Positions 775-21,854 are shown, counted from the first letter of the stretch. The stretch: 32,000 nt of DNA from Candidatus Helarchaeota ASGARD archaeon Hel_GB_B (GCA_005191425.1 SUPR01000001.1:40380-72379); one strand, 5' to 3'. Notes: generated from the sequence alone by a model not told the origin. Numbers and translations: made by a program.

Positions 775-1539
775 ATGTTACATTCATTTCATGTTATTGA
801 GAAAATAAGTGGAAGATCAATTTTTTCTAAATTATTTAAAGAGTTATTGATAGATCCAGCACTATTAAGTGGGTTTCTTTCAGCTATGAATTCATTTGCA
901 ATGAGTGAATTAGCAGATAAGGGAATTGAAAATATTGATATGAAAAATATTCGTTGGGTTTATATTGATGATAAAGATTTATTATTTATTATTGGCGCAG
1001 ATAAAGAAGATGAAGCAGAAATGCTAAAGAACCAACTAAAAGTCCTCAAGGATTCTTTTATTGAGTTTTTTTACATCAAGGATGGGTTCAGTAATATCAA
1101 CTGGGATGGTAATACAACTATTTTCCAAGATTTTGAGCCTGTTTTGGAGGAAAATGTTAAGAGCTGGGAAGAAGCTAAAAAAGTAAAAAATGCAGCAGCA
1201 TTAATGGACTTGCTAGATATTTATCAAAATTTATTTGCTAAGCTTGCATTATTTCCAGAAGCAAAACCACTTGATTTAGAAAATATCGATATCATGGAAA
1301 TGGCATTTGATGAACAAAATGCATCATGGAACGTCCATAAATTAGCTAAATTAGATGAACAAGATTTAAGAGCGAAACTTAAGGACGTAATCAGTAAATT
1401 TGTAATAATTTTGCAAAAAACTGCAAAAGATTATTATACCAAAATCAAGACCTTTGTTTTTCCATACATTAGAGAAGATTGGCAACGAATTAAAGATGCT
1501 AAAATGGACGAAGATATAATTAATTTATTCTTAACTTAG
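775..1539 (+). CDS. Longin-like domain protein with uncharacterised helical C-terminus
   Basis: N-terminal ~100 aa (SGRSIFSK..IDPALLSGFLSAMNSFAMSEL..IENIDM...LLFIIGADKEDE..LK..LK...F) matches the Asgard longin/AP-sigma-like pattern as I recall it. Confidence 0.7.
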   Translation: MLHSFHVIEKISGRSIFSKLFKELLIDPALLSGFLSAMNSFAMSELADKGIENIDMKNIRWVYIDDKDLLFIIGADKEDEAEMLKNQLKVLKDSFIEFFYIKDGFSNINWDGNTTIFQDFEPVLEENVKSWEEAKKVKNAAALMDLLDIYQNLFAKLALFPEAKPLDLENIDIMEMAFDEQNASWNVHKLAKLDEQDLRAKLKDVISKFVIILQKTAKDYYTKIKTFVFPYIREDWQRIKDAKMDEDIINLFLT

Positions 1540-5821: not shown

Positions 5822-6400
5822 ATGGAAATTTTTGAGGTCTTAGATAGTGGAGAAACGCGCTTCTTGACAGTAAATACCGTTAAAGAAGCCCTTCGACCTG
5901 ATAAAGTAATTATTATTTTAGACCATGACAAAAAATCAGTTTATATTCACGTTGGTAAAAATGCTTCAACTCGTCTGAAGTTTTCAAGTGCGAGGTCTTC
6001 ACGGTCAATACTTCAAGAACGAAATTTGGCTTATAGAGTTAAGACTATTGATGAAGAGGATCTACCATCATGGTTTGAGAGTATTACCAATAAGATAGTT
6101 AGAGATAATATAAGGGCTGAACCCCCACCACTTGAAATTCTAAAAATATTAAGAAAAATAGAAAACGCAGAACCTATTGAAGGATATAAAAGTGAAGCTG
6201 CTATTGTTAAAAATAAATTTTATAATTTAGAAACTACAGCTACTACAATTATGGGACAAAACCATTCTATTGAAAAATTTAAAGAAGTCCGAGATCTACC
6301 TGAGGGTTTTTATGTATTACCAAATACATATAAAGCAAGACTAATCATCGAAAAAGGTAAAGTTGTGGGAATTGAACTATTAAAAGAACGACCTACTTAA
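5822..6400 (+). CDS. Single gelsolin-like domain plus C-terminal extra domain (Asgard 1DGelX-like)
   Basis: L.PDKVIIILDHDKKSVYIHVGKNAS.R.KF..A....I......V..IDE...P.WF fits the gelsolin fold pattern. The C-terminal part (GYKSEAAIV.NKFY...DLPEGFYVL...Y.ARLIIE.GKV..IELLK) resembles GelX domain X as I recall it. Confidence 0.7.
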   Translation: MEIFEVLDSGETRFLTVNTVKEALRPDKVIIILDHDKKSVYIHVGKNASTRLKFSSARSSRSILQERNLAYRVKTIDEEDLPSWFESITNKIVRDNIRAEPPPLEILKILRKIENAEPIEGYKSEAAIVKNKFYNLETTATTIMGQNHSIEKFKEVRDLPEGFYVLPNTYKARLIIEKGKVVGIELLKERPT

Positions 6401-6545: not shown

Positions 6546-7079
6546 ATGAGCGAAGAAATTTATAAATTTTTTGAGGAACTTGTCAGAGACTATAAAATTC
6601 TATTAGAATTAGTTCCAGTTAATAATAACGCTATAAATATAATTACCCAATATTTCCCGCTTAATTTCGAGGCTAATTTTATAATATCTGACACTGGAGA
6701 AGAATTTTTTATTAGAATCTCCCCAGAATCCAATGTAATAAAGAAAAGAAGAAATCCATTTTCTATCATGACTATTATTACGGATAAAAATACCTTATTA
6801 AAGATAATTAGAAGACAAACTTCAATATTACGCGAATTTAATTTTCAAAATTTACATATATCTAATTTAAAACAAGTTTATATGTATCGAATTATTTTAT
6901 TAGGGATGTTAATACAATCTAAAGCAGAATATGATAATAGAAGAAAAATTCTGCGGTTCTTACCAATTAAAATTATCAGAAATTTCTTGTTGATATTTTT
7001 AGAAGATAAATCATTTGTTCTTATTAAATTGATTTTAAAAAAATTAATTCCAAAAATTATGGGTATTCTAGTTAAATAA
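6546..7079 (+). CDS. Hypothetical protein, possibly divergent SCP2-like lipid-binding domain with basic amphipathic C-terminus
   Basis: The pattern NFIISDTGEEFFIRI......MTIITD..TLLKII....S is SCP2-like but weak; it lies next to a clearer SCP2 gene. Confidence 0.45.
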   Translation: MSEEIYKFFEELVRDYKILLELVPVNNNAINIITQYFPLNFEANFIISDTGEEFFIRISPESNVIKKRRNPFSIMTIITDKNTLLKIIRRQTSILREFNFQNLHISNLKQVYMYRIILLGMLIQSKAEYDNRRKILRFLPIKIIRNFLLIFLEDKSFVLIKLILKKLIPKIMGILVK

Positions 7080-7098
7080 AATAAGATGATTAATAAAA

Positions 7099-7491
7099 AT
7101 GAGTGAATTATTTAACAAAATAGAATTTTTCTGTCAAGCATACAAAAAGAATTCTAAAAAATTACTTAATTTTAAAATAGGGAGTATTTCTAACTATTAT
7201 CCCCAGGGAATTAAAGTTAATATTATAGTATTAGACAATAAAATTGAAAATTATACCCTGTTAATATCAGATACTTCTTGTAAAGTTGTAAAAGGATTTT
7301 CTTCATCCCAATTAAATTTATCAGCCCTACCAGATGTGTGGGACAAGATTTTTTCAGGTAAATACCGGGTAATTAAAGGAATTATGGAGGGTAAAATAAA
7401 AGTAAGGGGGATAAGGTCAATGGTCAGTCCGTTGATAATATTATCATCATTATTTTATTTATATTCGGAGGATTTTGATAATAATGACTAA
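7099..7491 (+). CDS. SCP2 sterol/lipid-binding domain protein
   Basis: C-terminal DVWDKIFSG....KGIMEGKIKVRG is the SCP2 signature. Confidence 0.7.
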   Translation: MSELFNKIEFFCQAYKKNSKKLLNFKIGSISNYYPQGIKVNIIVLDNKIENYTLLISDTSCKVVKGFSSSQLNLSALPDVWDKIFSGKYRVIKGIMEGKIKVRGIRSMVSPLIILSSLFYLYSEDFDNND

Positions 7492-8950
7492 AAATACAGT
7501 TGCTGAAGATATTGCAGAATTTGTAGTAAATTTGAAATATAAAGATATCCCCAACCGTATTATCAAAAAGGCAAAAGATCAAATATTAGGAGTAATTGCT
7601 GCAATTTATGCGGGCTCACTTACAGATGAAGGAAAAATAATAATTAATACAGTTAAACAATTTGGTGATAAAGAGGAATCAAGTTTAATACCTTCGGGAT
7701 TTAAAACTTCAGTAAGAAGTAGTGTATTATGTAATTCGAGCGTAGGAGTTGCTCTTGACTATGTAGATTATCTATTAAGTGGGCATACGGGAGTCTCGGC
7801 AGTTCCGGTCTCTCTTGCAGTCGGAGAATCATTGAATTCTACAGGAAAAGAAGTTATAACAGCTCAGATCATTGCAAATGAAATAGAAGGAAGATTAGGA
7901 ACAAGCGTATTTCTAGGGCCACAAAATGGACAATTATGGTCGTATATTCATTTAATTGGTGGAGCAGTAGCTGCTTCACGATTATTAGGTCTTAATGAAG
8001 ATCAAGTAGCTAACGCAATTGGAATTGCACTCGCCCAAAGCACATATACAATTTTTAGAGGTTATTTTGCAATGGCAAAACTTTTTGTAAGCGGACTCCC
8101 TGCCCAAATTGGAGTTCAAGCTGCTTATTTTGCAAAAAATGGCTTAAGAGGGGCTCATGATATCATTGAGCACCCATTGGGGTTCTGTAATTTAATGGCA
8201 GATATACCATTAAAATTTATTACTAATTCCGCATTGGGTAAAGCTTGGGTTACAGATACTCTCTGTTATAAAATTTATCCAGGTTGCGCTTATGTCGATG
8301 CTATTGCAGATTGTATTCTTGATTTACATAAAGAATTTGATATTAATTACAAGGAAATTAAGAGAGTTGAAGTATTCTCAAGTATTTTAACCACGGCGAT
8401 GGACGATTTTGCAGCACCATTTACTACGATAGATTCGCTAAAAAAAGAACAGACTCATGTAGCGCTAAATTTTACAGTACCTTATACAGTGGCAGCAACT
8501 CTTATAGATAAAGAATTGACACCACGACAATTTAAAAAAGAAAGATATTTGAACCCAGAAATACATAATCTTGCTAATAAAGTAAAAATAATACCAGATT
8601 CTAAAATTTCATCAGAAATCCTGGGTACTTTGCCAGCTATTAAAATTCCAAGCTTAAAAGAGATTATATCTGGAAAATATTCGTTAGCAGATATAAATTT
8701 AGATGATGTAACAGTTGCTTTTGCCGGCGCAGTAAAGATAATAATGAATAACGGAAAAAAATACTATAAAAAACAAAATATTCCTTATGGAGCTCCAGGA
8801 AATCCTTATGATTTAAAGAAAAAATTTACACAAGAAGCTATAAATATATTACCAAGCGAAAAAATAGACCCAGCAATTCGCGCTATAAATAATATTGAAG
8901 CCATCGAAAATATTGGTGATTTAATACAAAAAATTTGTTCTCAAATATAA
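7475..8950 (+). CDS. MmgE/PrpD family protein (start may be ATG ~7484)
   Basis: AKDQILG, ALDY.D...GH....VP.SLAVGE, GAVAASRLLGL..DQ.ANAIGIA, G..AAYFAKNG.RG, KIYPGC, P.GAPGNP. Confidence 0.9.
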   Translation: MIIMTKNTVAEDIAEFVVNLKYKDIPNRIIKKAKDQILGVIAAIYAGSLTDEGKIIINTVKQFGDKEESSLIPSGFKTSVRSSVLCNSSVGVALDYVDYLLSGHTGVSAVPVSLAVGESLNSTGKEVITAQIIANEIEGRLGTSVFLGPQNGQLWSYIHLIGGAVAASRLLGLNEDQVANAIGIALAQSTYTIFRGYFAMAKLFVSGLPAQIGVQAAYFAKNGLRGAHDIIEHPLGFCNLMADIPLKFITNSALGKAWVTDTLCYKIYPGCAYVDAIADCILDLHKEFDINYKEIKRVEVFSSILTTAMDDFAAPFTTIDSLKKEQTHVALNFTVPYTVAATLIDKELTPRQFKKERYLNPEIHNLANKVKIIPDSKISSEILGTLPAIKIPSLKEIISGKYSLADINLDDVTVAFAGAVKIIMNNGKKYYKKQNIPYGAPGNPYDLKKKFTQEAINILPSEKIDPAIRAINNIEAIENIGDLIQKICSQI

Positions 8951-9651
8951 TTATGCTCATTAACTTTTTACTCTATAAATATTTAAATTCATTTACCAAT
9001 GGTCCAACTATTATCCTATAATTTACTACTTGTTTATATTATTAAAGAGATTTCGAATGAATTTTCAATTTATTTTTCAATTATTAACAGCATTAATTTG
9101 TTGTTATTTTATTTATATTCAATTCATCTAAAAAATACAAATTTCTCGTCTATTAAAGCAAAATTTGTCAATTTTTATTGAATTAAAATTAATTGCACCT
9201 AACGAATGTAAATAAAAAATTTATATTAAAAATTCGAATTCTGTGGACTTTACCTAAGATAAATATCAATGATTAATATAGATAAAAATTAATATAATTA
9301 AATTATTTTTTACTTTTTTAGGATGTTCGACTTTTGTATAATTCTAATTTAGACTTTCAAATTTTATGAATACAATAAATTTTTAAGAAAAATATGGAAA
9401 AAAAAGGTGGTCAGGCATCTAAAAATTCAATTATATGAATTGAGGGATGAAATATGGCTAATTTCTTAATGGAGCCTGACCATATTTTAAATGGTCTAGA
9501 AACCAAAAATATAATAGTTATTAAGTTATAAAAAATTTTGTAAAATAGATTTTTATTTGTTTTTTTATACAAATTATAGACCAGAATAATTGAGCAATTA
9601 GTCCACAAAAATTTTTGAAGAATAGTAAATTTTTATCAATGTGAAACAATT

Positions 9652-10140
9652 ATGAGTATAAATAATAAAATAAAATATGACTTTAAGAATAAATCACTAG
9701 CTGATATCCTGCTTGACGAGCTAAAGTATCTAAGGTCAAGGACAGGTATTAGAGTAAGCATCATTTTATCTCAAAGTGGTAAAATACTGTCAATTCATGA
9801 GGATGCAGCATATGTGCCCGACCAATTAAGATATGGAGCAAGAAATCAACATATTGATAAAGAATATTTATCAAAATGGATTGTTTCTACTTCTAGGACT
9901 ATAGAATTCGTTTCAGAAAAAATGTTTACCGATGGAATAAAATTTATTATTTTAGAAGGAAATGATAAGAAAGAAGCAATAATAATGAATTATAAAGACC
10001 CAGATCCAGATATTTCCTTTATTTTAATGGGTTTATTAACAAAAGCTGGATCAATTGGACTTGGATATCAAGAAATAAAAGAGAGTTCTGAAAGAATAAA
10101 AGATATTTTAATAAGCTATAAAAATTATCAGAATTTATAA
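9652..10140 (+). CDS. Roadblock/LC7 (MglB/LAMTOR-like) domain protein
   Basis: Helix, then GIRVSIILSQSGKIL; central helix; IKFIILEG...AII; FILMGL....SIGL...EIK...ERI..IL: roadblock topology with an insertion. Confidence 0.7.
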   Translation: MSINNKIKYDFKNKSLADILLDELKYLRSRTGIRVSIILSQSGKILSIHEDAAYVPDQLRYGARNQHIDKEYLSKWIVSTSRTIEFVSEKMFTDGIKFIILEGNDKKEAIIMNYKDPDPDISFILMGLLTKAGSIGLGYQEIKESSERIKDILISYKNYQNL

Positions 10141-10320
10141 TATAATTAGGTATTATTAAAGAATAGTGATATTTTTATTAAGTATATTGAGAAAATAAAT
10201 ATATGAATTAATGACAAGATTTTTATGATGTTTTAATAAAATCTTAAATTTCAATTATAAATCGTTTTAGTATAAAGATTAACCAAATCAAATTTCAGAA
10301 AGTTCAGGAGTTTAGAAATT

Positions 10321-10713
10321 TTGTCAGAATTTGCTAGATTTATGGAATCTATTTCATCAGAAGCAACTGAAACAAAGATAAATGAACTTTCTGATGTCCT
10401 TAATAAAGTACTTCAGATAATAACAAAAGCACTTGATGATTTAACTGTAAAGATGGTCGGACTTGAAGAAGAAATATATTTTTTAGAGCAAAAGATTGAA
10501 AATATCCAGAGGAGGTCAAAGAATATTCAAGCATCACTGTCCAGACAAGAGGTAAGCCAGAAGGTAGTGACTAATAAAGAAACTAAACCACCAACTACCC
10601 AAACACAGATTAATCAACCTCAAAAACAAACCACAGAAAATGTAAAACCTGTACCCCTTAGATCTGCAGTAAATACTGAACTTAAAGATCTATTTAAAAA
10701 ATTGAAAAAATAA
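10321..10713 (+). CDS. Coiled-coil / low-complexity linker / C-terminal amphipathic helix protein (paralog 1)
   Basis: Heptads over aa ~18-75, T/Q/P-rich linker, ends RSAVNTELKDLFKKLKK; TTG start. Confidence 0.75.
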   Translation: MSEFARFMESISSEATETKINELSDVLNKVLQIITKALDDLTVKMVGLEEEIYFLEQKIENIQRRSKNIQASLSRQEVSQKVVTNKETKPPTTQTQINQPQKQTTENVKPVPLRSAVNTELKDLFKKLKK

Positions 10714-11156
10714 TGATGTTCAAAATGAGTGATAATTTTTTTAATATTTTAATGAAATCATCTACGGCTTCAATTGATGAAAAAATAAAGAAACTAAGCA
10801 TGGTATTAGACAAAATTATGGAAGTTGCAATCAAGTCAATAAGTGGAATTGAAAATCAAGTTCAAACTTTTGACGCAATATTAGCAGAAATTAGAAATAA
10901 AATTGAAGGACTAGAAGCTAATTTGACCGTTTTGGAACAGAAACAAGAAGCAATGGCAAAATCAAGTATTGGTAGCAGTACAACATTAGAAACGCCAATG
11001 CCCTCCCAATCTTCTCGTCCAGTTGAAACAAAACCTATAAATAAACCATTGGCACCTCCTGTATCAGCATCAACTCCAAAACCAACTCGGCCAATTAACC
11101 CCAGAGCTGAATTACAATCAGAATTAAAAGCACTTTTTTCAAAAATGAAGCGTTAA
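10713..11156 (+). CDS. Coiled-coil / Pro-Ser-Thr linker / C-terminal amphipathic helix protein (paralog 2)
   Basis: Shares KI..LS.VL.K...K.......KIE with paralog 1; ends RAELQSELKALFSKMKR; TAATG stop/start overlap. Confidence 0.75.
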   Translation: MMFKMSDNFFNILMKSSTASIDEKIKKLSMVLDKIMEVAIKSISGIENQVQTFDAILAEIRNKIEGLEANLTVLEQKQEAMAKSSIGSSTTLETPMPSQSSRPVETKPINKPLAPPVSASTPKPTRPINPRAELQSELKALFSKMKR

Positions 11157-11167
11157 AAAAAGAAGTT

Positions 11168-12079
11168 TTATTTATTAAAAAAATTTAATATTTCAGTTGC
11201 ACCACTTTTTAATGCAAGCCCTGCTAATTGAGTAGAGGAATTAGGGCCAATTTGAGTTATTATTAAAAATCCGCTTTTTTTGTTAGGAATTTTTACTGGC
11301 ATTAAAATTAATTTGCCTCGTTCACCATCAATTGTTGAGAAGGTCTTACCAATATTAAAAGCATCGCCCACAGAATTTGCAGACAATGCCACTGTTGATG
11401 CAATTAATGAACCAATATTGACATCAATTTCATGTGGAAAAGTCGAGAATAAAACACGCCCCTCAGTGGTAGAAATTAATGCAGCTATTGCTCCAGCTTT
11501 TGTTTTTATAGTTTCCATGATTTTATTTAGAGCTTTCATTGTTTCTTCATCATATAAAGGGACATTTTCTTTAGGTCCAATTAAAAATTTGCACATTTTA
11601 TCTCCTTTGGCAATACATTCAGTTTCATTTATCTCAACTTCAGAATCGAATAATACACTAGCCATACCTTTTAATATTCCTTGAATACCAAAACATGATG
11701 CTATTCCTTCTTCGTAAGCTTCAGGGGAGTTTTGAATCTCAATATATATTTTTTTATTATCTTCATCTATATTTATATTCCCCAATGTTGCACCCCAGCC
11801 TCCTCGTTCTAAGCTTCTTAAGATAAACCTAAACGCGGTATTTTTATCTGCTTTTTTCTTATCTATAACAAGTTCCATAAATCTTTTACCAATATCTTCT
11901 CCAATTTTAATATAAATTGGCCGAAGACCCTCTTTTAAAAATTTATTTGCAGTGAGATACATCTGTCTAAAATGTTCAATATGAAGTATAATTATTCTGA
12001 AATTGAAGCCTTTAATTTCTCCTTTAAAAATAGAAAAATCTTTGAAAGTAAAATTTTTAGTCTCTTCTAACAAGCCCAT
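11168..12079 (-). CDS. V4R (TRAPPC3/Bet3-related) domain fused to C-terminal roadblock domain
   Basis: GWG, NSPEA, SC..I.GIL.G......V...ETECIAKGD..CKF (V4R); then AALISTTEGRVL...I.GERGKLILMP...LII...P......GL (roadblock). Confidence 0.8.
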   Translation of the reverse strand: MGLLEETKNFTFKDFSIFKGEIKGFNFRIIILHIEHFRQMYLTANKFLKEGLRPIYIKIGEDIGKRFMELVIDKKKADKNTAFRFILRSLERGGWGATLGNINIDEDNKKIYIEIQNSPEAYEEGIASCFGIQGILKGMASVLFDSEVEINETECIAKGDKMCKFLIGPKENVPLYDEETMKALNKIMETIKTKAGAIAALISTTEGRVLFSTFPHEIDVNIGSLIASTVALSANSVGDAFNIGKTFSTIDGERGKLILMPVKIPNKKSGFLIITQIGPNSSTQLAGLALKSGATEILNFFNK

Positions 12080-12142
12080 ATTTTACACCTTTTATTATTA
12101 AAAAAGATAAATCATTTAAAATAAAAATAGAGTTAGATAGAT

Positions 12143-15100
12143 TTAAACTCTTGTAATTTTGGTAGATGAAGCCATCCAAATGGGTCCAATTATTTCGTGA
12201 ATTAACGCTACCAAAGTTTCTTGTTGAGATACTAATGCAGTTAATTGTGTTAGGTCGTATTTTTCAGAATATGGTGCAATTAATACTTCTTCACCGTCTC
12301 TACCAACTGCAAATAGGTTCATCTCAGGTCTTTGCCTTATTTGTACATTTCCTAATTCTAGCAACTCTCTAACCTGGTCTTTTGCTTCGTTCAAGATACG
12401 AGATGCAACAATTATTCTTATTCTTCGACTAGCGGATTTAATAGTTTCTAGAGGCAGGTCACTAAAATCAGGAGCTACAATAGATACAGTTGATTTTGTT
12501 CTCATAAGAATGTCCCGGATATATTCTTTTATTGCCTCAACACCTACTAATGGCCAAGTAAGTTCGCCGGATTTCGCTAGTATATTAGTAGTTTCCTGCC
12601 ATACTGCTCTTAGAAGTTGACTTACTTTTAAGGTTTCACCTTCAGCTTCTCTGAATGTAAATGCCGCATCTTTATTAGTGTTTGTAAGTCGCTCTGTTAA
12701 TATAGAATCGGTTTCATCTAATTTTGCAGCTAATTTTTCATTTAATGAATTTGCGTTTGATTCATAGTCAGTTTGGTGTTGGCTAGCTAATTGTAGTAAA
12801 TCAGTTTCTAGTTTTGCAGCATCTGCTTGGAATCCTGCGGCATGGTTGGAAATTGTTTCTTTACATTCCTCATAAGTTTTGGTAGTCAATTCTTTAATTT
12901 GTGCTAAATATTTATTATCAATTTCGTTTATATCGTTTTTTATTTGTGAAAATCCTTCATTCATAGTATTAGATATTTGCTCTTGGACATCATTTGCCAT
13001 TTTATTAACTCGTTCGTTATCATTGTTGACAAAATCTTTAATAGTATTTTTCATTTGATTTAATGCTTCGTGGCCACGGTTTTTAACATCATCTACTCGT
13101 TTAATTTCGGTCTGTACTATATTTGCGACATCATCTTTTTTCTCGTCTATCGATTTATTCATATTAGCTGTTATTTCATCTAATTCTCCTAACTTATTAT
13201 CATCAATTTCTTGAAGATTTTTCTTATGCTCCTGGATTATATTTGCAAGCAATGAAATAGATTTATTACGAATTTCATGTGATTGTGATTCAACATTACC
13301 TACTCTTAAGTCTAATGCTTTATAAAATTCATCACGCATTGAATCAAGTTCGTTTTGATATTCTTTGATTCTATCATCTAGAGTATCAGAAAGAACTTGC
13401 TCCAATTTACTTGTATCTTCTTGTAAAAGTTTATTTTGGCCGGAAATCTTGGATAAAAATTCGTCTTTCAATTTATTTAGTAAGTCGCTGTATCTTTTTA
13501 TGACATCATCTGATTTACTAACTATCGAGTCCTTCATTTTGTAAAAATCTAATTCTATTGCTTCTACTTGAGAATTAATTATTTCTTGAGACTGGTCACC
13601 ATATTTAGAAGCATTATCCTTGAACCAATTTAAGTTATTATTATTATATTTGTCAAAAACAGCAGATACATTTTCCTTTTTAGTATTTATCGATGAAATT
13701 TCGGAACTGATAATATCAGCAAGATTTTCAGTAGTATCGTTTGACCATTTGTCTAAAGATTCATTTACCTTATCTTGATAGTCTTTAATATTTACTTCTA
13801 ACTCTTTAACTAAATTTTTTGATGTTTCATTTATGGTATTAATTAATTGTTCATTAGCCCCGCGTTCTTCCTTAATTTTTTCATTTAATTTTCTAATAGC
13901 ATTATCAATAATTTCCTTAATTTCAGGTCTGTCTTTACTATATTCTTTTAATTCATTTTCCAGTTCTTTTTCCCAGTCACGGAGATTATGAATTGTTTTT
14001 GTTATTTCCCCTGATGAAACATTTTTAATTGAGTCGACCTTGGTCTGAATTTCGTCATGTAAAGTTTTCGATAAAGATTTTATCTTATTTTTTTCTTCAG
14101 ATTTCAGATTTTTAATTGAATTATTTGCTTTTGATTTTAAATCATCCAAATTTTTGTTTAAATTAGAAATACTTGCATCTAATTCTTGATTGAATTCACT
14201 CCTTGCGGAATTTATTTCATCTGTTAATTGAGCTAAACGCTCGTCTAAATTCGAAGTTAATGTTTTTTCCAAATCAGTTGACCCGGCTTGAAGCCTTTTA
14301 ATTTGACTTGTAAATTTGTCAAGAAATTCCTGTTGTATATCACCAACTAATTGCTTGAACCTTGAAATTAAATCATTTGTAAAATTTGCTACATCATTTG
14401 TAAATTGATAGAATTCGGTATCTCGTTTAGTAATTTCATTATTAAACAATTTTTCAGCAGTTTCACGAAAATTGCTGGCTCTATTTTTAAACCATTCCAT
14501 ATGATTATTTTGTGAATTTTGAATTTCAGACCTTAATTCCTTATCTTTTTCCCAAGTAGCTTCAATTTCCTTTTTTATCATTTCTAAGAATTCGTCTGAT
14601 AAATTTTTATGCCATTCATCATAGGCAGTGTAATTTTGATTGCGATTACTATTAATAATATCATTTACTCCTTTGACATATTCGACCATTATTCGATCAG
14701 TGAATTCATCAAATACGCCATCAATGCGAGTATTAAGTAGATTTAATCCTTCTACATTTTCGGCAGAGACTTTATCGAGAATTTCATTGCCGTAATTGTC
14801 CAAGACATTATCAATATTATTATTTAAATTATTTAATTCATTTTTATGTTCATCGGCTGTAGTATCATGTATATTTTTAGTTTTTTGCATTAATTCATTA
14901 TATCTATTTTCCAGGTCATTAGCCAAAGTGTCTTCATATTCATGAATTAATTTATTGTGGTCATCATTACGCTGATTAAAATTGTTAGTTATCTCTTCTT
15001 TTCTCGATTCCACATCAGAATTTAATTTTATTACTTGATTTGTAATTAAATTAGAAATTCCATCTCTAGCATTAATTGTATCTTTGGCAAATTGTTCTAA

Positions 15101-15514
15101 TTGAGTATTTATAGCCTCTGCTACTTGATCTTTAAGAGTTATGACCTCTTGCTTTAAGTCATTAATATGTTTATTAATGTTAGAATCGAAATCCTCTCGT
15201 TGTTTGATAGTTTTTTCTCTATATTGATCCAAAAATTGAGTAAAGGCAGAATAAGGGACGACTGGCATATATCTATTTATATCTTTAGCTGCTGAACCTA
15301 TTGCAACAGCAAGGTTATTATCTAAAAATTTTTGTATTGTATTTCTCGCTTCTTCCATTGAGATATTTGCCAATGCCGCTAAAGATGATTCAGTTATATA
15401 TCCTTTTGCATATAATGCGACAAAGGCTCTTGCTTCAGCTTCTGTTAATGTAACACCTCGTTCTTTAAAAGTATCTATAATTATTTGAAACATATTTTGG
15501 TTTTGTACACTCAT
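12143..15514 (-). CDS. TrmB-family architecture (N-terminal wHTH, C-terminal PLD-like effector domain) with ~880-aa helical insert
   Basis: N-terminus LTEAEARAFVAL...GYIT..SLA....IS......I.KFLD..L...RY.PV.P; C-terminus W.L.G.EAI..YI.D.L.R.KSTV.IVAP...RD.EEVLIAP; the middle is Pro-poor and helical. Confidence 0.8.
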   Translation of the reverse strand: MSVQNQNMFQIIIDTFKERGVTLTEAEARAFVALYAKGYITESSLAALANISMEEARNTIQKFLDNNLAVAIGSAAKDINRYMPVVPYSAFTQFLDQYREKTIKQREDFDSNINKHINDLKQEVITLKDQVAEAINTQLEQFAKDTINARDGISNLITNQVIKLNSDVESRKEEITNNFNQRNDDHNKLIHEYEDTLANDLENRYNELMQKTKNIHDTTADEHKNELNNLNNNIDNVLDNYGNEILDKVSAENVEGLNLLNTRIDGVFDEFTDRIMVEYVKGVNDIINSNRNQNYTAYDEWHKNLSDEFLEMIKKEIEATWEKDKELRSEIQNSQNNHMEWFKNRASNFRETAEKLFNNEITKRDTEFYQFTNDVANFTNDLISRFKQLVGDIQQEFLDKFTSQIKRLQAGSTDLEKTLTSNLDERLAQLTDEINSARSEFNQELDASISNLNKNLDDLKSKANNSIKNLKSEEKNKIKSLSKTLHDEIQTKVDSIKNVSSGEITKTIHNLRDWEKELENELKEYSKDRPEIKEIIDNAIRKLNEKIKEERGANEQLINTINETSKNLVKELEVNIKDYQDKVNESLDKWSNDTTENLADIISSEISSINTKKENVSAVFDKYNNNNLNWFKDNASKYGDQSQEIINSQVEAIELDFYKMKDSIVSKSDDVIKRYSDLLNKLKDEFLSKISGQNKLLQEDTSKLEQVLSDTLDDRIKEYQNELDSMRDEFYKALDLRVGNVESQSHEIRNKSISLLANIIQEHKKNLQEIDDNKLGELDEITANMNKSIDEKKDDVANIVQTEIKRVDDVKNRGHEALNQMKNTIKDFVNNDNERVNKMANDVQEQISNTMNEGFSQIKNDINEIDNKYLAQIKELTTKTYEECKETISNHAAGFQADAAKLETDLLQLASQHQTDYESNANSLNEKLAAKLDETDSILTERLTNTNKDAAFTFREAEGETLKVSQLLRAVWQETTNILAKSGELTWPLVGVEAIKEYIRDILMRTKSTVSIVAPDFSDLPLETIKSASRRIRIIVASRILNEAKDQVRELLELGNVQIRQRPEMNLFAVGRDGEEVLIAPYSEKYDLTQLTALVSQQETLVALIHEIIGPIWMASSTKITRV

Positions 15515-15523
15515 TTTATATTT

Positions 15524-15528
15524 CCTCC
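15524..15528 (-). promoter_or_regulatory. Shine-Dalgarno GGAGG between the ATPase-TPR stop and the TrmB-like start
   Basis: Minus strand reads TAAGGAGGAAATATAAAATG, supporting co-transcription. Confidence 0.7.
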
Positions 15529-17412
15529 TTATGAACTACCTCCTTCTATGGCTACTTTTGTTCTATTTAACTTTTCTACAAAATCAGCCAACCCTAAATT
15601 TTGGAATTTTTGAATGGAATCCTCCAAAATGTCCTTGGCTTTATCTACTTGCCCTTGAATTGCATATACATTTGATAAGTTAGTATAAAATTGCCATGCA
15701 TAAAAATATTCATTATTTGAAAAGAATGTCTTTGCTGCTTTTGTTAGTACATTTATTACTTCATTTGTGGCATTTATTTCTTCGAAATACTTTTTAGCTT
15801 GAGTATAGTTTGCTCTGGCTAATGGATATGCCTTGTCCTTAATGCAATCTTCGGCTTTTTCGACAAATAAATTAGCCAATTTATTTATTAATTCTTTCAC
15901 TTTTTCGGGTTCTCCTAAGCTTCTATTTACATCAATTGCATTAATGAGGACATCCCTGCCATAATCTAATAACCCTTTTTCGAGGAACTTTTCTGTAAAA
16001 CTTTCCAAAATATTTGCGGCTTTTTCTTTTTCATTAACTTTTACGAGACTATCCCCTGCAAGTAATATAAACTTAAAAACTTCATTATAATATCCATAAT
16101 TATAATAATTCATAGCTATATCATAATAACCATTTGCGATATGCTCAACTGCAGATACCAGTCCCGCTGTTAGAGAATCAGATCTTAGACGTTCTAATTC
16201 TTCGAATTGAAAATCTTCCAATAATCTTCCATTTTCAGCCAAATTCATTGCAACTTTAATTAGACCTCTTGCTTGCGCATCTACTGCAATATCACCCAAA
16301 CTACTTCGTAAATAAATCCAAAAACTGTCTAATGTAATATAATAAACACTATCTTCTTTACTCAAATATTTTCCAATCATTTTTTCAAGTATTGGTTTGA
16401 TATCTTCACTTTTTGCGCCAATCGAACGAGCTATTATATCAATATCTGCAAAATTTGCATTTTCCATTGCAAATGACTGTAATATTTTTCTTTCGTCCTC
16501 AGTTAATTCTTTAAGTTCTCGTCCAAAACCTTCTTTAACTCCGCCTTCAGCTTTAAACCATACATCTTTACCTAGTTCTCTTGTATCGCCTCTATTTTCA
16601 TACAACCATCCGCCATTATAAACTAAATAAAGAGGAATTCCACCACTATGTCTTAATAAATTCTCTTTTATCTCTTCACTAAATTTAATTCCTGCTGCAT
16701 CTGCTCTTTTATCAAGTAATTCTATTGCATCAGCATTATTTAAAGTTGGTAAACCTATTTCGTGAAAATCCTCTAATACATAACGAACTTTTGGATAATA
16801 CTTTTCCCAAACAGACATCAAAAAGAGAACAGGGAGGTTTGGATTTTTTACATCCGTTTTTATAGCGTCTACTATTGCTTTTAATACATCAAATGCATTG
16901 TCATGATTTAATATTATAAATCTTTCAACAAGATTAGAAACAATTAGAATACCTTTTTTATTGAATTTATTACCTTGAATATTTTTAATAATTTTAGGTA
17001 ATTTTTTAACAATTTTTTTCAAAAAAGAATCAATATACTTACTCATATCAGGGATTTCATAGCTGCTTTTTAAAAGCGGAGCTTTTTTACCTGGTTTTGT
17101 AATAGGTTTCTTTTTGTCCACGGGTTTCGTTATTTCATCTAATTCATTGCTTATTACATCGAAATAACCTTCAATATTTATCAATGGTACATCATATCTA
17201 ATTACCAGAAAACCATTTGATGAAGCTATGGACTCGATTTGTTTTAAAAAACTTCTTCTACCAATTCCTTCGCGTCCATGTAATATTAAGCCATGTGAAA
17301 TATTTTCTCGGTCAGCTATTTTTTGCAAAATTCCTGAAAATTGATCTATTTCTCTTTTTCTTCCCACAAAGAATTTCGCTGGGCATGTTTCTAATTTAAA
17401 TGGGTCCGTCAT
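15529..17412 (-). CDS. STAND-like AAA ATPase (degenerate Walker A/B) - winged helix - TPR/SNAP-like repeat protein
   Basis: FVGRKREI, LILHGREGIGRRSFL, I.LPTL...DA.ELL..RA, SGGIPLYL, L..DER.IL; C-terminal helical repeats with A..YY/AKKYF patterns. Confidence 0.8.
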   Translation of the reverse strand: MTDPFKLETCPAKFFVGRKREIDQFSGILQKIADRENISHGLILHGREGIGRRSFLKQIESIASSNGFLVIRYDVPLINIEGYFDVISNELDEITKPVDKKKPITKPGKKAPLLKSSYEIPDMSKYIDSFLKKIVKKLPKIIKNIQGNKFNKKGILIVSNLVERFIILNHDNAFDVLKAIVDAIKTDVKNPNLPVLFLMSVWEKYYPKVRYVLEDFHEIGLPTLNNADAIELLDKRADAAGIKFSEEIKENLLRHSGGIPLYLVYNGGWLYENRGDTRELGKDVWFKAEGGVKEGFGRELKELTEDERKILQSFAMENANFADIDIIARSIGAKSEDIKPILEKMIGKYLSKEDSVYYITLDSFWIYLRSSLGDIAVDAQARGLIKVAMNLAENGRLLEDFQFEELERLRSDSLTAGLVSAVEHIANGYYDIAMNYYNYGYYNEVFKFILLAGDSLVKVNEKEKAANILESFTEKFLEKGLLDYGRDVLINAIDVNRSLGEPEKVKELINKLANLFVEKAEDCIKDKAYPLARANYTQAKKYFEEINATNEVINVLTKAAKTFFSNNEYFYAWQFYTNLSNVYAIQGQVDKAKDILEDSIQKFQNLGLADFVEKLNRTKVAIEGGSS

Positions 17413-17948
17413 ATTAAAAACCTTTTTTATTTTAATTTATCCTTAATATATATGTGTGGTTTTAAAAATTTTGAACATTGAATTATTTTAAATTATATTG
17501 ATCTTTAATATTTATATGTTTAATTTAAAGGTTTAATTTAAAGAGATTTTGATGATTTTTTAAAAATACAAATTTTAATTTTTTAATTTATATTTTTAGG
17601 AATTTCTGTATTACACATAAAAATATTAGACTTTTTGAGAGAAATATCCGTTATTTATATTTTTAAATATTTTGTTATTATATTTTCTGACTGTAAAAAA
17701 GCAGATTTTAGATTAGACATATTTAAAATACAATAAATTACTGATAAAAAGGTTAGTAATTTAATATCTTACATTTTATAATTTTTTTTATAAGTCAGAT
17801 TAACTGAAATTTATATTGATTAAGTTTAAATAAAATAATAATGTTTCAAATATTAATTTTTTAATCGATAACGAAATATAAATATAATAACTACTAATAG
17901 TTAATATCAAAATCACTATTTAATTTGTTTTCACTTTAAAAAGTTAAT

Positions 17949-18617
17949 TTAAAAAAAGGTGTTAATGAAAGAAATTATCGAATAACCATTGAATTGGAGA
18001 TATACTTCAATAATTGAGATTATTAATATGATAAGAAGAAAAATGTAATTATTAAAAATTCGCCAAATCCGATCATTTGTATAAATTATTTCACTATTTT
18101 TTGGATTTTTAATATTTAAAATTTTACATAAACCCATTCCTAAGAATAATCCCGAAAATATACTTATAATCGCAAATAAGGCATCTTCAGAATAATCAAA
18201 TATACCTACTAAAAACCGGTAATTCACTATTAGGTCAAATAAAACTAACATTATAATTAATGTACAGACTCCAGAAATGATTACTGCTATAATAGAATTT
18301 TTTGATAATTGGATTATAGGTTGCACCATAAAAACTATGCAAATTAAAATTAATAGAATGTACGGAATGAATTCATAATATTGAGCAAAAATTAACGGTA
18401 CACCTAATGATATTGTAGAAATTATATCCAATATAGTAAAAAATAAAAACATTTCACCTGCTAAAAAATAAAATAAAGACCCCCAGCTTAATTTTGGTTT
18501 TTCATCTGATTTTAGACCCCAGAAATTAAAACTACTAATAACTTTCGGTATAAAAAATAAAATTATCCCAAATAAATAATAAGAAATTCTTAAATCAATC
18601 ATTTTTACAATCTCCAT
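17949..18617 (-). CDS. Hypothetical multi-pass membrane protein
   Basis: 222-aa ORF with about 6 hydrophobic segments; overlaps the 3' end of the phosphoesterase gene by 13 bp. Confidence 0.7.
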   Translation of the reverse strand: MEIVKMIDLRISYYLFGIILFFIPKVISSFNFWGLKSDEKPKLSWGSLFYFLAGEMFLFFTILDIISTISLGVPLIFAQYYEFIPYILLILICIVFMVQPIIQLSKNSIIAVIISGVCTLIIMLVLFDLIVNYRFLVGIFDYSEDALFAIISIFSGLFLGMGLCKILNIKNPKNSEIIYTNDRIWRIFNNYIFLLIILIISIIEVYLQFNGYSIISFINTFF

Positions 18618-19813
18618 GGGTTTGTTTGGTTTAATGTTAAACTATCAAATATAACACCATTTTGATCAATTGCATGTATTGTTAATCGGGTATTATTTAT
18701 TTCAACATGACAAAACTCGTAAACTGACCTAATTATCGCAGAATTTGGGTGAGTATTATAAGCCATAGCTTCTAACTCTGCTCCGCCACCACCTGTAATT
18801 ATATAATGAGTCCCATTTACATTCAGTCTCTCGTAATAATGAATATGTCCATTGAATACAACATCCACTTTATAACGTTCTAATAATGGAATAATTTCTT
18901 GTACCACTTTATATTTCCCTGCAGATGCATAAGCAGGATAATGCCAGTACCCAATTATCCAATTTATATTTTTACTTGCATTTGCTTTAAATAATGTTTC
19001 ATTCAACCAATCTAGTTCAGCTTGGCTAATTCCGTTTCTATTAATATAAGTTTCGGTATTTATATCAAGAGCAAAAAAACAAGTATTACTATAATTGAAA
19101 GCATAATAAAAATCATTATGAGTATAATTCATAAAATATTCAAACCTATGACCATAATCAGGTGCATATTCAATAGTTTCATGGTTACCAATTGAGCACA
19201 TATAAGGGTGAGTGCTTGCATAATCATTAATATCTATGCTATCAAAAAAGCGCTGCCAGTGGTCCTCTCGATTTGGAGCTAAGACAATATCTCCAATATT
19301 TAAAATAAAATTTGGATTTGTTTCTATCATTTTTTTCATGATAATTCTCTGAGCAGAATACCCAAAAAAATCAGGCCTTGTATCTCCTACCACATTAAAT
19401 GAAAAAACAGGTTTATTTGATGACGGTGCAGTCCTAAATTTATAATCTTTATTCATATAATATAAATTACATTCACTGCTATTAATTTTATAATGATATT
19501 CTGTGTCCGGCTTTAAAGATGTAATATTAAAATGATGAATTCTTACAGCTACGGGGTCACTTATGTTAAGGTCTAAATAACTAGAATTTTTTCCCAAAAA
19601 TACAGTTGTTATACATTTTTTCGGGGTTTGAAATGATATCCCAATAGCACTAGAAGCATTTCCAGTAACAATTGAAAGATACGGAGCTTTTTCATAATAA
19701 TTATTATTAACCCCAAAATTAAAATCTCCTGAAAATATTACCAACATAAATGCCCCATATATAATAATAAATAAAAAGATTTTCGCGAGAATTTTTTTAC
19801 CCATTTTTCTCAA
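18605..19813 (-). CDS. Membrane-anchored purple-acid-phosphatase-like metallophosphoesterase with FN3 domain (start probably ATG 19804)
   Basis: N-terminal TM helix, FN3-like H...ITSLKPDTEYHYKI, calcineurin-like motifs GDTR, GDIV, GNHE, WHYP, GHIHYYER. Confidence 0.9.
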   Translation of the reverse strand: MRKMGKKILAKIFLFIIIYGAFMLVIFSGDFNFGVNNNYYEKAPYLSIVTGNASSAIGISFQTPKKCITTVFLGKNSSYLDLNISDPVAVRIHHFNITSLKPDTEYHYKINSSECNLYYMNKDYKFRTAPSSNKPVFSFNVVGDTRPDFFGYSAQRIIMKKMIETNPNFILNIGDIVLAPNREDHWQRFFDSIDINDYASTHPYMCSIGNHETIEYAPDYGHRFEYFMNYTHNDFYYAFNYSNTCFFALDINTETYINRNGISQAELDWLNETLFKANASKNINWIIGYWHYPAYASAGKYKVVQEIIPLLERYKVDVVFNGHIHYYERLNVNGTHYIITGGGGAELEAMAYNTHPNSAIIRSVYEFCHVEINNTRLTIHAIDQNGVIFDSLTLNQTNPWRL

Positions 19814-20353: not shown

Positions 20354-20857
20354 ATGCAAGTCTATATTACAACACTTGGGCGATCTGAATGGGCAGTTAT
20401 CAATAGTTATTATGCAGTTGTTAAAAATAAGAGATATTACCCAGATTTAATTTATATCATAACTGAAGATTTGTTCCAAGATAGAATTCACAAGATAATA
20501 GATGGTCTAAATATCATTTCAAATGAGTTTGGATTTAATCCAGAATATAAATTGACAATTGTAAAAGAATCCGAGTTTTCTGATGCAAAGAATAAAATCG
20601 ATATAATCGCAAAAGATTTAGAAAATTCTAATAATATGATTGCCGTAGATATTACATCTGGTCGAAAAGTATTAGTAATTAATATTCTCTTATTAATATT
20701 CTATTCAAAAATAAAAGTTCAACATATTTTTTATTTAGCAATAAAGACAATTAAAGGGGTTAATAAACCATATGAAATGATACCAATTCAAATTCAATCA
20801 TTAAGAGATTTTATCCAAGAAATTAATGAGGTGAAAAATAGACCAAATGGCACATGA
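20354..20857 (+). CDS. Stand-alone CARF-domain protein
   Basis: CARF motif I YITTLGRS.WAV and motif II IAVDITSGRK, followed by IFYL; no fused effector domain. Confidence 0.75.
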   Translation: MQVYITTLGRSEWAVINSYYAVVKNKRYYPDLIYIITEDLFQDRIHKIIDGLNIISNEFGFNPEYKLTIVKESEFSDAKNKIDIIAKDLENSNNMIAVDITSGRKVLVINILLLIFYSKIKVQHIFYLAIKTIKGVNKPYEMIPIQIQSLRDFIQEINEVKNRPNGT

Positions 20858-21854
20858 AACAATAATTAATCCCCCAGAATTACAAATTTTATTGAACAAA
20901 TTTGACGACTATTCGATATCATTTCCTGCTTTTTCTAAAGATACAATTTTAACTGCAACACCATTTAATGATTGTTATAAAATAAAAGTAAATGATAATT
21001 ATTTTGATTCCGATCGAGATGGTCTTAACATTTTTAACGATATTTATTATTCAGAAATACCAAATAATCAAGATTTTCTAGAATGTCTCTTGTCAAGTAA
21101 TTGTATTACCTATCCTAACGTGGGAGATTTTGAGTATATAAGAAAATCATATAAAAATATCCATAAAAAGGTATATTTTGCTGTGGATACAAATATTCTC
21201 TATCATAGGTTTATCTCTTTCTCTAAATTAAAAGAAGAGAAAATCGTATTAGCACCTACCATTAAAGATGAAATAGAGTCATCAATAAATTATAAATATA
21301 ATAGGGAGGAAATTAATGAAATTAAAAAAATTGTAAGATATAACAAAAATTTATTTGATGAATTTAGAAATAGACGCATAAAAAAGTCAAGAAAGGCAGC
21401 ATATCTTGCATTAAATGAGCTAAAACTTTTAAATATCCTTAATATAGACAGCGTAAAAATAGAGCAAGAAAATTATGAACAAAATGATTTAAAAATTGTT
21501 AGAGAGTTAAAAGCTTTTGAAAATGACTCAGGAGCGTTGGTAGTATTATTAACAGCAGATAGAGCAATGGTAGATTTCTGCAGAATAGAGTCCTTAGATT
21601 ATTTTAATTTTGATTATCCAAACACATTTAATATAAATACATGTTCGGCACAACAATTTAGGTCTTTAATTTTTAATTTAGCCGTTGTTTTTGGATTTAT
21701 AAAATTAAATTCGACAATAATATTCGGCGAATTTTCAGGAAAACACGAGTTAGACAATTTGAAAATTAGATTTTTAAACAAAAACTTGTATAATAAATTC
21801 GAAAAAGATTTAAGCATCTGCCGGAAGTTAGAAAAACTAAATTTTGATTTTTAA
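20847..21854 (+). CDS. PIN-domain ribonuclease with N- and C-terminal extensions
   Basis: YFAVDTNIL, LAPTIKDEI, NDLKIV, VVLLTAD acidic tetrad; overlaps the CARF gene by 11 bp; GAGGTGA SD at 20828-20834. Confidence 0.8.
   Translation: MAHETIINPPELQILLNKFDDYSISFPAFSKDTILTATPFNDCYKIKVNDNYFDSDRDGLNIFNDIYYSEIPNNQDFLECLLSSNCITYPNVGDFEYIRKSYKNIHKKVYFAVDTNILYHRFISFSKLKEEKIVLAPTIKDEIESSINYKYNREEINEIKKIVRYNKNLFDEFRNRRIKKSRKAAYLALNELKLLNILNIDSVKIEQENYEQNDLKIVRELKAFENDSGALVVLLTADRAMVDFCRIESLDYFNFDYPNTFNINTCSAQQFRSLIFNLAVVFGFIKLNSTIIFGEFSGKHELDNLKIRFLNKNLYNKFEKDLSICRKLEKLNFDF

Follow-up and report, generated by a model that had tools for sequence, protein, structure and literature searches.

The locus described here lies in a 32,000-nt stretch of DNA (the window) from Candidatus Helarchaeota ASGARD archaeon Hel_GB_B (GCA_005191425.1 SUPR01000001.1:40380-72379), where six genes between positions 9652 and 17412 form a plus-strand trio that converges on a minus-strand trio. 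We hold, at about even confidence, that these are two things side by side: the minus-strand trio is the Helarchaeales version of an operon found across the Asgard archaea, and the plus-strand trio is not a fixed part of it. The invariant pair of this operon, as predicted from sequence, is a STAND-type P-loop NTPase whose C-terminal half is TPR-like (NTPase-TPR) and a giant TrmBL2-family protein, a predicted DNA binder with a hendecad rod of ~830 residues. Searches of a literature library returned no published description of an NTPase/rod operon in Asgard archaea, and the operon is apparently undescribed. The six genes and the region upstream of the operon are as follows.

9652–10140, plus strand: divergent roadblock/MglB-fold protein, 162 aa (AlphaFold2 model and Foldseek)
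10321–10713, plus strand: small coiled-coil protein 1, 130 aa, TTG start (paralogue of 10713–11156)
10713–11156, plus strand: small coiled-coil protein 2, 147 aa (paralogue in tandem; start codon overlapping the stop codon of protein 1)
11168–12079, minus strand: V4R-Roadblock protein, 303 aa (Pfam V4R and Robl_LC7)
12143–15514, minus strand: giant TrmBL2-type protein, 1123 aa (N-terminal profile and C-domain fold)
15529–17412, minus strand: NTPase-TPR protein, 627 aa (orthologue alignment; sub-threshold Pfam)
17413–17948, no strand: AT-rich intergenic region of 536 bp upstream of the NTPase gene (sequence reading), likely the promoter region of the minus-strand operon

All six open reading frames (ORFs) have orthologues at 25–80% identity in related genomes, and are therefore real genes. 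Their coordinates and spacing agree exactly with those of an earlier reading made from the sequence alone (hereafter the sequence-only reading): the convergent stop codons are separated by 11 bp (11157–11167), and the minus-strand gaps are 14 and 63 bp. Shine-Dalgarno (SD)-like sites precede the giant gene (AAGGAGG), the V4R-Roadblock gene (AGGTG) and the gene for small coiled-coil protein 1 (CAGGAG). Of the SD sites that had been claimed on the minus strand, those of the giant and V4R-Roadblock genes stand; the NTPase gene has a weak AAGGT as its sole SD-like site, behind the 536-bp AT-rich spacer. No SD-like site was seen in the sequence upstream of ORF 9652.

Conservation of the minus-strand genes

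We compared seven Helarchaeales genomes in three families: the window genome (G000) and G001, of the same genus (family f1); G002, G004 and G006, together with an f2-like 107-kb contig (f2); and G003 and G005 (f3). Each of the seven genomes of the order (7/7) has a single NTPase gene, followed in every case by the giant gene, adjacent and co-directional. Elsewhere in the class, 1 of the 144 genomes searched contained an NTPase match, which was weak and partial. The V4R-Roadblock gene lies 0.06–4.8 kb from the giant gene in all six resolved loci (G000, G001, G003, G004, G005 and the 107-kb contig), and this proximity persists despite strand changes and inserted genes. It is directly downstream of the giant gene in G000 and G001, and also in G003, across a contig break. 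A PAP2 gene separates the two in G005, one ORF stands between the convergent genes in G004, and on the 107-kb contig the V4R-Roadblock gene is reached 4.8 kb away, past leucine-rich repeat (LRR), alcohol dehydrogenase (ADH) and Na/H-exchanger genes. In G002 and G006 the contigs that carry it (4.4 and 2.6 kb) are too short to resolve its position. Of the six-gene linkage put forward in the sequence-only reading, what holds in every resolved Helarchaeales locus is the minus-strand trio; in f2 the 162-aa roadblock and small coiled-coil genes lie apart from it.

The core extends beyond the order. A profile of the NTPase alignment (A2) found homologues of 556–596 aa, mostly single copy, in 84/400 Asgard genomes, with high occupancy in some families (f13 30/31, f21 6/6, f28 5/5, f15 10/12), 8/22 in f16, and almost none in f4 and f5. 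Gene order was read from 12 fetched distant loci, from Borrarchaeum, Jordarchaeales, Freyarchaeum, Heimdallarchaeum/Heimdallarchaeaceae, Heimdallarchaeota and Wukongarchaeota. Eight of these encode the NTPase, a mid-sized rod protein of 425–773 aa and a giant of 1176–1812 aa with matching N- and C-terminal domains. As for the other four, one contig ends after the mid-rod gene, two f16 loci have the NTPase and mid rod only, and one f4 locus is permuted. No other neighbour was common to more than three of the 12 loci. Public annotations call these proteins ‘hypothetical’ or ‘ATP-binding protein’. An uninformative search of the window genome with a Freyarchaeum mid-rod protein gave no match. Because the mid rod is missing, the giant is shorter and a V4R-Roadblock neighbour has been added, the Helarchaeales carry a variant of the operon. 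A V4R gene near the Borrarchaeum operon (G307) was considered as a counterpart and set aside as coincidence: it encodes thioredoxin plus two V4R domains, has no roadblock, and is separated from the operon by a dihydrodipicolinate synthase (DHDPS) gene.

One public record touches these comparisons. The G002 operon contig (L064, DATKTP010000090.1) is labelled ‘Candidatus Deferrimicrobium sp.’; our genome search places G002 in the order of the window, and the L064 genes are 45% identical to Helarchaeota genes, so that the label is probably wrong, or the bin mixed.

Predicted architecture of the minus-strand proteins

The giant protein consists of a winged helix-turn-helix (wHTH) at aa 1–100 (nt 15215–15514), a rod at about aa 101–933 and a PLD-fold C-domain at aa 934–1123 (nt 12146–12715). 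An N-terminal profile of 11 giants (alignment A5) matched TrmB (3qph, E = 1.4e-11) and TrmBL2 (5bpd, E = 1.7e-10) over positions 4–101. The AlphaFold2 (AF2) model of the C-terminal 190 aa (pLDDT 79), a long helix plus an α/β domain, matched TrmBL2 (E = 4.8e-11) and TrmB (2f5t, E = 2.3e-8, TM 0.60, root-mean-square deviation 2.8 Å) in Foldseek. This relation was seen by fold search; the C-domain sequence profile had no significant match in the PDB (E = 1.1). The description of the protein as a giant helical TrmB was correct. The C-domain model aligns to 140/233 residues of 2f5t, and the giant ends (aa 1123) after the PLD-fold domain, so that the second sugar-binding subdomain of TrmB sensu stricto is missing. 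Among the 11 aligned C-domains the PLD catalytic His is not conserved, the invariant residues being E, T, P, R, D and E.

The rod of ~830 residues has a hydrophobic period of 3.65 residues, as in a hendecad, and a single proline, P530, near its midpoint. In all six orthologues the rod is broken by a Gly or Pro at one shared alignment position in mid-rod, and an internal duplication (336–481 vs. 625–770, E = 2e-24) puts one copy in each rod half. The giant has the same wHTH and PLD-fold C-domain as TrmBL2, a chromatin protein of Thermococcales (5bpd, 5bqt), and as TrmB (3qph, 2f5t), and like TrmBL2 it is without the second sugar-binding subdomain. In contrast to TrmBL2, however, a pairing helix of ~30 residues is replaced by the duplicated ~830-aa hendecad rod (1200–1500 aa in other Asgard lineages), and the gene for the giant, a predicted DNA binder, invariably comes straight after a dedicated STAND NTPase-TPR gene. 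SMC, Rad50 and MukB provide a working analogy only, in that the giant would likewise combine a DNA-binding head and a very long helical arm with an NTPase from the same operon. Unlike these proteins, it has wHTH and PLD-fold ends in place of the ABC-type ATPase head halves, and a hendecad rather than heptad arm that would fold back on itself; SMC matches to the coiled coil were at chance level, and no sequence relationship was detected.

The NTPase-TPR protein has a STAND/AAA_16-like P-loop domain (about aa 1–370) and then a C-terminal half of predicted TPR/SNAP-like helical repeats. All Pfam scores of the window protein were below cut-off (AAA_16, 18.6 vs. 32.6 bits; SNAP, 21.5 vs. 25 bits; TPR_12, TPR_14 and TPR_2, 15–17 vs. 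23–30 bits), and the A2 profile gave chance-level AAA+ matches only against the PDB. The orthologues keep FVGR...G-x-x-G-x-GK[ST] and hhhhD: f2 and f3 proteins in alignment A2 have the canonical GRPGIGKTS and hhhhD, and both Walker motifs are kept in 10 distant Asgard homologues. The window copy lacks this STAND/AAA_16 signature (GxxGxGK[ST] plus hhhhD). Its Walker A reads GREGIGRRS, with R52 and R53 in place of Lys and Thr, and its Walker B reads VSN, with N160 in place of Asp; its congener G001 is similar (Walker A GREGIGRRS or GREGIGRKS; Asn in Walker B). Only G000 and G001 have lost the motifs; 14 other genomes or families retain them intact. Judged by these motifs, the family is a P-loop NTPase of which the window copy is a degenerate member, and the ‘degenerate ATPase’ of the sequence-only reading is right for this genus only. 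Since the f2, f3 and distant homologues keep their Walker motifs, the pseudo-ATPase state is a recent change in this genus. A Lys-rich insert between Walker A and B (aa 95–153), probably disordered, has an outline that is conserved in Helarchaeales orthologues.

STAND NTPases with TPRs (AAA_16/MalT/AfsR-type) are the nearest known likeness, in the P-loop motifs of the orthologues and the predicted TPR/SNAP-like repeats that follow. The Asgard protein differs from them in its sub-cut-off Pfam scores, in the Lys-rich insert, in the loss of both motifs in this genus, and in that its partner is a rod protein rather than a transcription output domain.

In the V4R-Roadblock protein, V4R occupies about aa 1–170 (nt 11570–12079) and Roadblock/LC7 about aa 180–303 (nt 11171–11542). 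Both calls were confirmed above Pfam cut-offs (V4R, PF02830, 44.8 vs. 31 bits, E = 1.3e-11; Robl_LC7, PF03259, aa 189–262, 26.0 vs. 23 bits, E = 7.8e-6). The Cys/Glu residues of the metal-site motif, C129, E152, C155 and C163, are invariant in 10 orthologues (alignment A8). The best NCBIfam match is the V4R part of MsvR, and in IMG an orthologue is named ‘predicted hydrocarbon binding protein / regulator of Ras-like GTPase activity’. By sequence comparison the protein does not group with eukaryote-type TRAPPC3/Bet3: hmmscan at E ≤ 0.1 returned V4R, Robl_LC7 and MetOD1 and no TRAPP/Bet3 family, and the domain did not appear to lie nearer to TRAPPC3 than it does to bacterial V4R. Every one of the six other genomes of the order (6/6) has a full-length orthologue, none was found elsewhere in the class, and only some five representatives among 1.84 billion match the protein end to end. 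A complex prediction of the NTPase-TPR (A2) with the V4R-Roadblock protein (A8), run without controls, scored 0.00, which speaks neither for nor against binding.

Zn sites are described in PoxR and Thor-TRAPPC3, palmitate or ligand binding for the TRAPPC3/V4R fold, and a longin-TRAPPC3 fusion in Heimdall (Commun Biol 2024, PMC10933270). V4R(-V4R)-Roadblock fusions also exist elsewhere, for example in an Altiarchaeales metagenome-assembled genome (MAG). The window protein resembles Asgard roadblock/TRAPPC3/V4R proteins, Heimdall longin-TRAPPC3 and archaeal V4R-V4R-Roadblock in joining a Zn-site V4R to a roadblock/longin-type platform, but it has a single V4R followed by the roadblock, and its full-length orthologues are confined to Helarchaeales. 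It is kept beside the NTPase/rod operon, whereas the small GTPase genes of MK-D1 do not, as a rule, share operons with roadblock, longin or TRAPPC3 genes (PMC10933270).

Three further observations concern this gene. In f2 an ArsA/Get3-type ATPase gene always flanks it, adjacent or one ORF away (three loci: L014:8981-10554, L015:1885-2826 and the 107-kb contig). In G004 a Ras-family small GTPase gene directly follows that ATPase gene. A divergent full-length relative, P0074, has arginine/lysine-type biosynthesis genes as neighbours, on a contig that ends at the gene.

The plus-strand genes and the flanks

The two small coiled-coil genes are paralogous, as the sequence-only reading had proposed (29% identity, E = 1e-9). 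Their products consist of an N-terminal coiled coil, a Pro/Thr/Gln-rich linker, a C-terminal helix with an invariant ELKxLF, and a basic tail (alignment A6). The A6 profile found the family in 156/301 Asgard genomes, mostly as a single copy; nearly every genome of f4, f5, f27, f20, f28 and f21 has it, and f13, f15 and f16 gave no match. The small proteins align over their full length with the last ~110 aa of 406–413-aa proteins, namely two Arf/Gtr1_RagA-domain GTPases and one HEAT-wHTH protein of G005. By this alignment, they are free-standing copies of an Arf/RagA-like GTPase tail, with which they share the coiled coil, the Pro-rich linker and the terminal helix. They differ from the tailed GTPases in standing alone, in having no GTPase domain and in their tandem duplication in f1 (the window and G001) and in two of the three f2 genomes (G002 and G006). 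The G005 protein, with HEAT repeats and a wHTH (406 aa; L081:1474-2694, G005:C1), carries the tail at E = 7e-20; since it also occurs outside GTPases, the tail is a portable module.

The window genome itself encodes, on other contigs, two Arf/RagA-like GTPases of ~406 aa (G000:C134:18817-19941 and G000:C117:17124-18296) that match the tailed GTPase of G004 through the C-terminus, and a third free-standing small coiled-coil protein (G000:C124:26022-26435; L079:6514-6975) beside an 1850-aa ORF. In f3, an extra coiled-coil protein of 214 or 254 aa with a shared C-terminal motif is encoded directly upstream of the small coiled-coil gene (L016:9686-10330 and L028:5060-5824, both minus strand); it is absent from the window. 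Two candidate features of the small proteins were rejected. A WH2 motif had no Pfam WH2 match at E ≤ 0.1, the module being homologous to GTPase tails; and the C-terminal helix, tried as an amphipathic membrane helix, had an unexceptional hydrophobic moment relative to shuffles.

Small coiled-coil genes are linked to the core only in Helarchaeales f1 and f3. In G003 one shares the strand of the NTPase gene and lies 332 bp upstream of it. In f2 they are on separate contigs of 2.5–3.6 kb: none was present within 6.6 kb upstream of the NTPase gene in G002, nor did gene calls covering 20.9 kb of the 107-kb contig, whose end falls within the NTPase gene, include one. Outside Helarchaeales their neighbours are not conserved, and where one shares a contig with the NTPase operon the distance is ~0.19 Mb (G307), 0.28 Mb (G265) or 2 Mb (G267). 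The separate f2 locations and these distances speak against the idea that the plus-strand genes are fixed partners of the core.

The 162-aa protein had been called a roadblock. It has no Pfam match, even to PF03259, and BLASTP found no similarity to the roadblock domain of the V4R-Roadblock protein. Its AF2 model (19 homologues, pLDDT 74, pTM 0.73) has the topology α-β-β-α-β-β-β-α, and Foldseek matched it to MglB (3t1s, E = 1.7e-6, TM 0.57/0.68; also 1j3w), the Asgard roadblocks 9jue and 7f8m, and LAMTOR. There were 55 matches at E ≤ 1e-3, and all 50 shown are roadblock-fold proteins or complexes containing them. From this topology and these matches, the roadblock call holds at the level of fold. 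Like MglB and LAMTOR/Ragulator, which are among the best matches, the protein has the α-β-β-α-β-β-β-α fold; in contrast to them, it is only 10–14% identical (up to 21% to Asgard Roadblock3) and has no MglA- or Rag-type GTPase gene beside it. No MglA/Ras-like partner was found among the six genes or in the immediate window flanks, so that the gene pairing of an MglB-type GTPase-activating protein is lacking. Homologues are named only as Helarchaeota or Promethearchaeota MAGs, and the profile found none in 293 other Asgard genomes, bar one weak match interrupted by stop codons; by this profile the family is restricted to Helarchaeales.

The 162-aa roadblock probably belongs to an upstream block of genes rather than to the core. 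The block w6546, SCP2-like (7099–7491), MmgE/PrpD-like (7475–8950) and 162-aa roadblock (window 6546–10140, plus strand) is kept in f1 and f2, and in f2 the order gelsolin, then w6546, SCP2-like, PrpD-like, roadblock and two enoyl-CoA hydratases reproduces the left flank of the window without the core. The roadblock was not found in G002 or G003 (G003 is 94% complete). A gelsolin gene accompanies it in f1, f2 and G005, and in the window is the following.

5822–6400, plus strand: Asgard two-domain gelsolin (2DGel), 192 aa (A7 profile)

The window gelsolin alone has no Pfam match; the A7 profile matched 2DGel3 (7c2h, E = 4.3e-12), Heimdall 2DGel (7whf, 3.1e-9), Loki gelsolin (7whg, 6.3e-7) and villin (1.2e-5). 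Its f2 orthologues (L030:9132-10490, L031:6679-7941 and L032:2037-3248) carry an extra Q/E/K-rich coiled-coil extension of ~220–250 aa, which brings them to 403–452 aa; in G005 the copy bears a Lys-rich tail. In G005, the gelsolin, the 162-aa roadblock, one small coiled-coil protein, the 214-aa coiled coil, the V4R-Roadblock protein, the giant and the NTPase are encoded within ~10 kb, in other orientations.

Pfam and NCBIfam scans upheld the earlier statement that no enzyme or GTPase is encoded among the six genes. The window is AT-rich (GC 22–36%), and tRNA and Rfam scans of it gave no matches. Its flanks encode ordinary archaeal metabolism (homoserine dehydrogenase, PrpD-like, CoA synthesis) as well as Csa3 and PIN proteins. 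Collinearity with the same-genus genome (L013) runs from ORF 3630 through the NTPase gene and ends at 17413–17948; tblastn of ORFs 17949–18617 and 18605–19813 against L013 gave no match. The Csa3-like CARF/Rossmann regulator and PIN-domain protein (20354–21854, plus strand) lie 3 kb from the locus, and no CRISPR array or cas genes were noticed within the window. At 775–1539 (plus strand) is a 254-aa protein with a weak longin-like match (Fuz_longin_1, E = 8.7e-4, below cut-off), a homologue of which (L028:9626-10222) is ~5.5 kb from the NTPase gene in G003.

A working model, its rivals and their implications

We propose that, in the giant, the short pairing helix separating wHTH from PLD-fold C-domain grew into the ~830-residue rod. 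The rod would fold back near its midpoint, bringing the wHTH and C-domain together to rebuild a TrmBL2-like head on DNA, from which an arm of ~60 nm would project. The NTPase-TPR may then load, bundle or release such arms as a nucleotide switch; with the Walker A Lys and Walker B Asp lost, the window NTPase could act only as a nucleotide-independent scaffold. Helarchaeales would have dropped the second rod protein that the ancestral operon encoded and recruited the V4R-Roadblock protein as a dimeric, Zn-site, small-ligand-binding adaptor, and the plus-strand genes would be neighbours from GTPase and actin-regulator circuitry.

Several points weigh against this model. Taken alone, the window giant falls below the Pfam TrmB cut-off (E = 0.021), and its wHTH is 11–22% identical to those of other families. 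Its apolipoprotein-like 11-residue repeats are equally compatible with lipid-binding helices. DNA binding, rod fold-back, NTPase activity and all protein contacts are things we infer. In f2, the giant and V4R-Roadblock genes are on opposite strands and split by unrelated genes (a 282-aa ORF, or the LRR, ADH and Na/H-exchanger genes), which makes the V4R-Roadblock gene there a neighbour rather than an operon member. Retention of the neighbourhood within one order may partly be inherited gene order, and several f2 contigs are too short to resolve positions.

A ligand-responsive transcription system, in which the giant regulates nearby genes, V4R senses a hydrophobic effector and the STAND NTPase is a MalT-like co-regulator, we regard as unlikely. 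The TrmB family consists mostly of effector-controlled regulators, the head domains match TrmB (3qph, 2f5t) and the V4R Zn-site residues are invariant. The IMG name of the V4R-Roadblock orthologue refers to hydrocarbon binding, and Helarchaeota have been proposed as hydrocarbon oxidisers (PMC6478937). Yet a regulator has no obvious need for a conserved rod of 830–1500 aa, or for the second rod of other lineages; the flanking genes are wholly different between families, so that there is no conserved target regulon nearby; and the giant shares its lack of the second sugar-binding subdomain with the chromatin protein TrmBL2. Somewhat less probable still is a membrane or lipid scaffold, with apolipoprotein/perilipin-like helices coating a lipid surface, a Bet3-like V4R holding lipid, and DNA or cytoplasm thereby linked to membrane. 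Pfam Apolipoprotein does match the giant (E = 1.1e-16) and, in other lineages, the mid rods; the TRAPPC3/V4R fold is one to which palmitate or ligands bind (PMC10933270), and some neighbours are lipid- or membrane-related (SCP2-like in the window, PAP2 in G005, the ArsA/Get3-type ATPase in f2). The score in the giant, however, is far under the cut-off (61.6 vs. 90 bits), hendecad coiled coils would show this periodicity too, the end helix of the small coiled-coil proteins has an unexceptional hydrophobic moment, and these neighbours vary by family, with none conserved alongside the operon.

The sequence-only reading had tentatively placed all six products in one eukaryote-like cytoskeletal or trafficking complex, built from a roadblock heterodimer and a long rod together with a TPR adaptor and short helical effector motifs. 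We consider this improbable, at about one step below the lipid scaffold. What remains of it is that the minus-strand trio is kept together and that a small coiled-coil gene stands beside the core in two of three families, including the same-strand gene just upstream of the NTPase in G003; that all five protein families are found within ~10 kb in G005, strands differing; that a two-domain gelsolin gene is 0.4–4 kb from the cluster in f1 and f3; and that the small coiled-coil proteins are homologous to Arf/RagA-like GTPase tails while roadblock folds are GTPase platforms. Against these stand the f2 genomes, where the 162-aa roadblock and small coiled-coil genes are not at the core, the two genomes in which that roadblock was not found, the 0.2–2 Mb that separate small coiled-coil genes from the operon outside Helarchaeales, and the absence of any GTPase, actin or membrane protein among the six genes. 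A giant of TrmBL2 type, a predicted DNA binder, points to DNA or chromatin rather than vesicle trafficking. Antiviral defence, by an Avs-like STAND NTPase with a TPR sensor and a PLD-fold nuclease effector on a coiled-coil protein, is the most remote of the explanations. The STAND-TPR architecture would suit it, as would lower-ranked Foldseek matches of the C-domain model to PLD-fold proteins including the nucleases Nuc, NucT and Zucchini (E = 1e-5 to 1e-6), weak NCBIfam ZorA matches to the rod, and the nearby Csa3 and PIN genes. But the NTPase is not patchy, being single copy in every genome of the order and present in nearly all members of f13, f21 and f28; the PLD catalytic His is not conserved; and the best structural matches are non-catalytic TrmBL2/TrmB domains.

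Taking up again the reading of an Asgard-wide operon beside unfixed neighbours, it is a long shot that the operon builds DNA-anchored arms of ~60 nm or longer that physically couple chromatin to cytoplasmic signalling platforms, and that in Helarchaeales free GTPase-tail modules and a Bet3-like/roadblock adaptor, similar to TRAPP or Ragulator, wire these arms to the circuitry of small GTPases and actin regulators. If true, this would be a prokaryotic precursor of the nucleoskeleton, or of a tether between chromatin and cytoskeleton.

Among known prokaryotes, Asgard archaea are those most closely related to eukaryotes, and genes of unknown function that run through their whole lineage are prime candidates for a cell biology that preceded eukaryotes. 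Two ‘cytoskeletal’ candidates are reassigned here: the small coiled-coil proteins as free GTPase-tail modules, and the 162-aa protein as a predicted Helarchaeales-only MglB-fold roadblock that travels with a gelsolin gene. The operon itself is evolutionarily plastic, one order having lost the second rod and recruited the V4R-Roadblock protein, and one genus having let its NTPase motifs decay. It thus offers natural comparisons, of an active with a dead switch, and of operons that have the second rod or the adaptor with those that lack it. If the rod machine does organise DNA, it would bear on how chromatin was organised before there was a nucleus.

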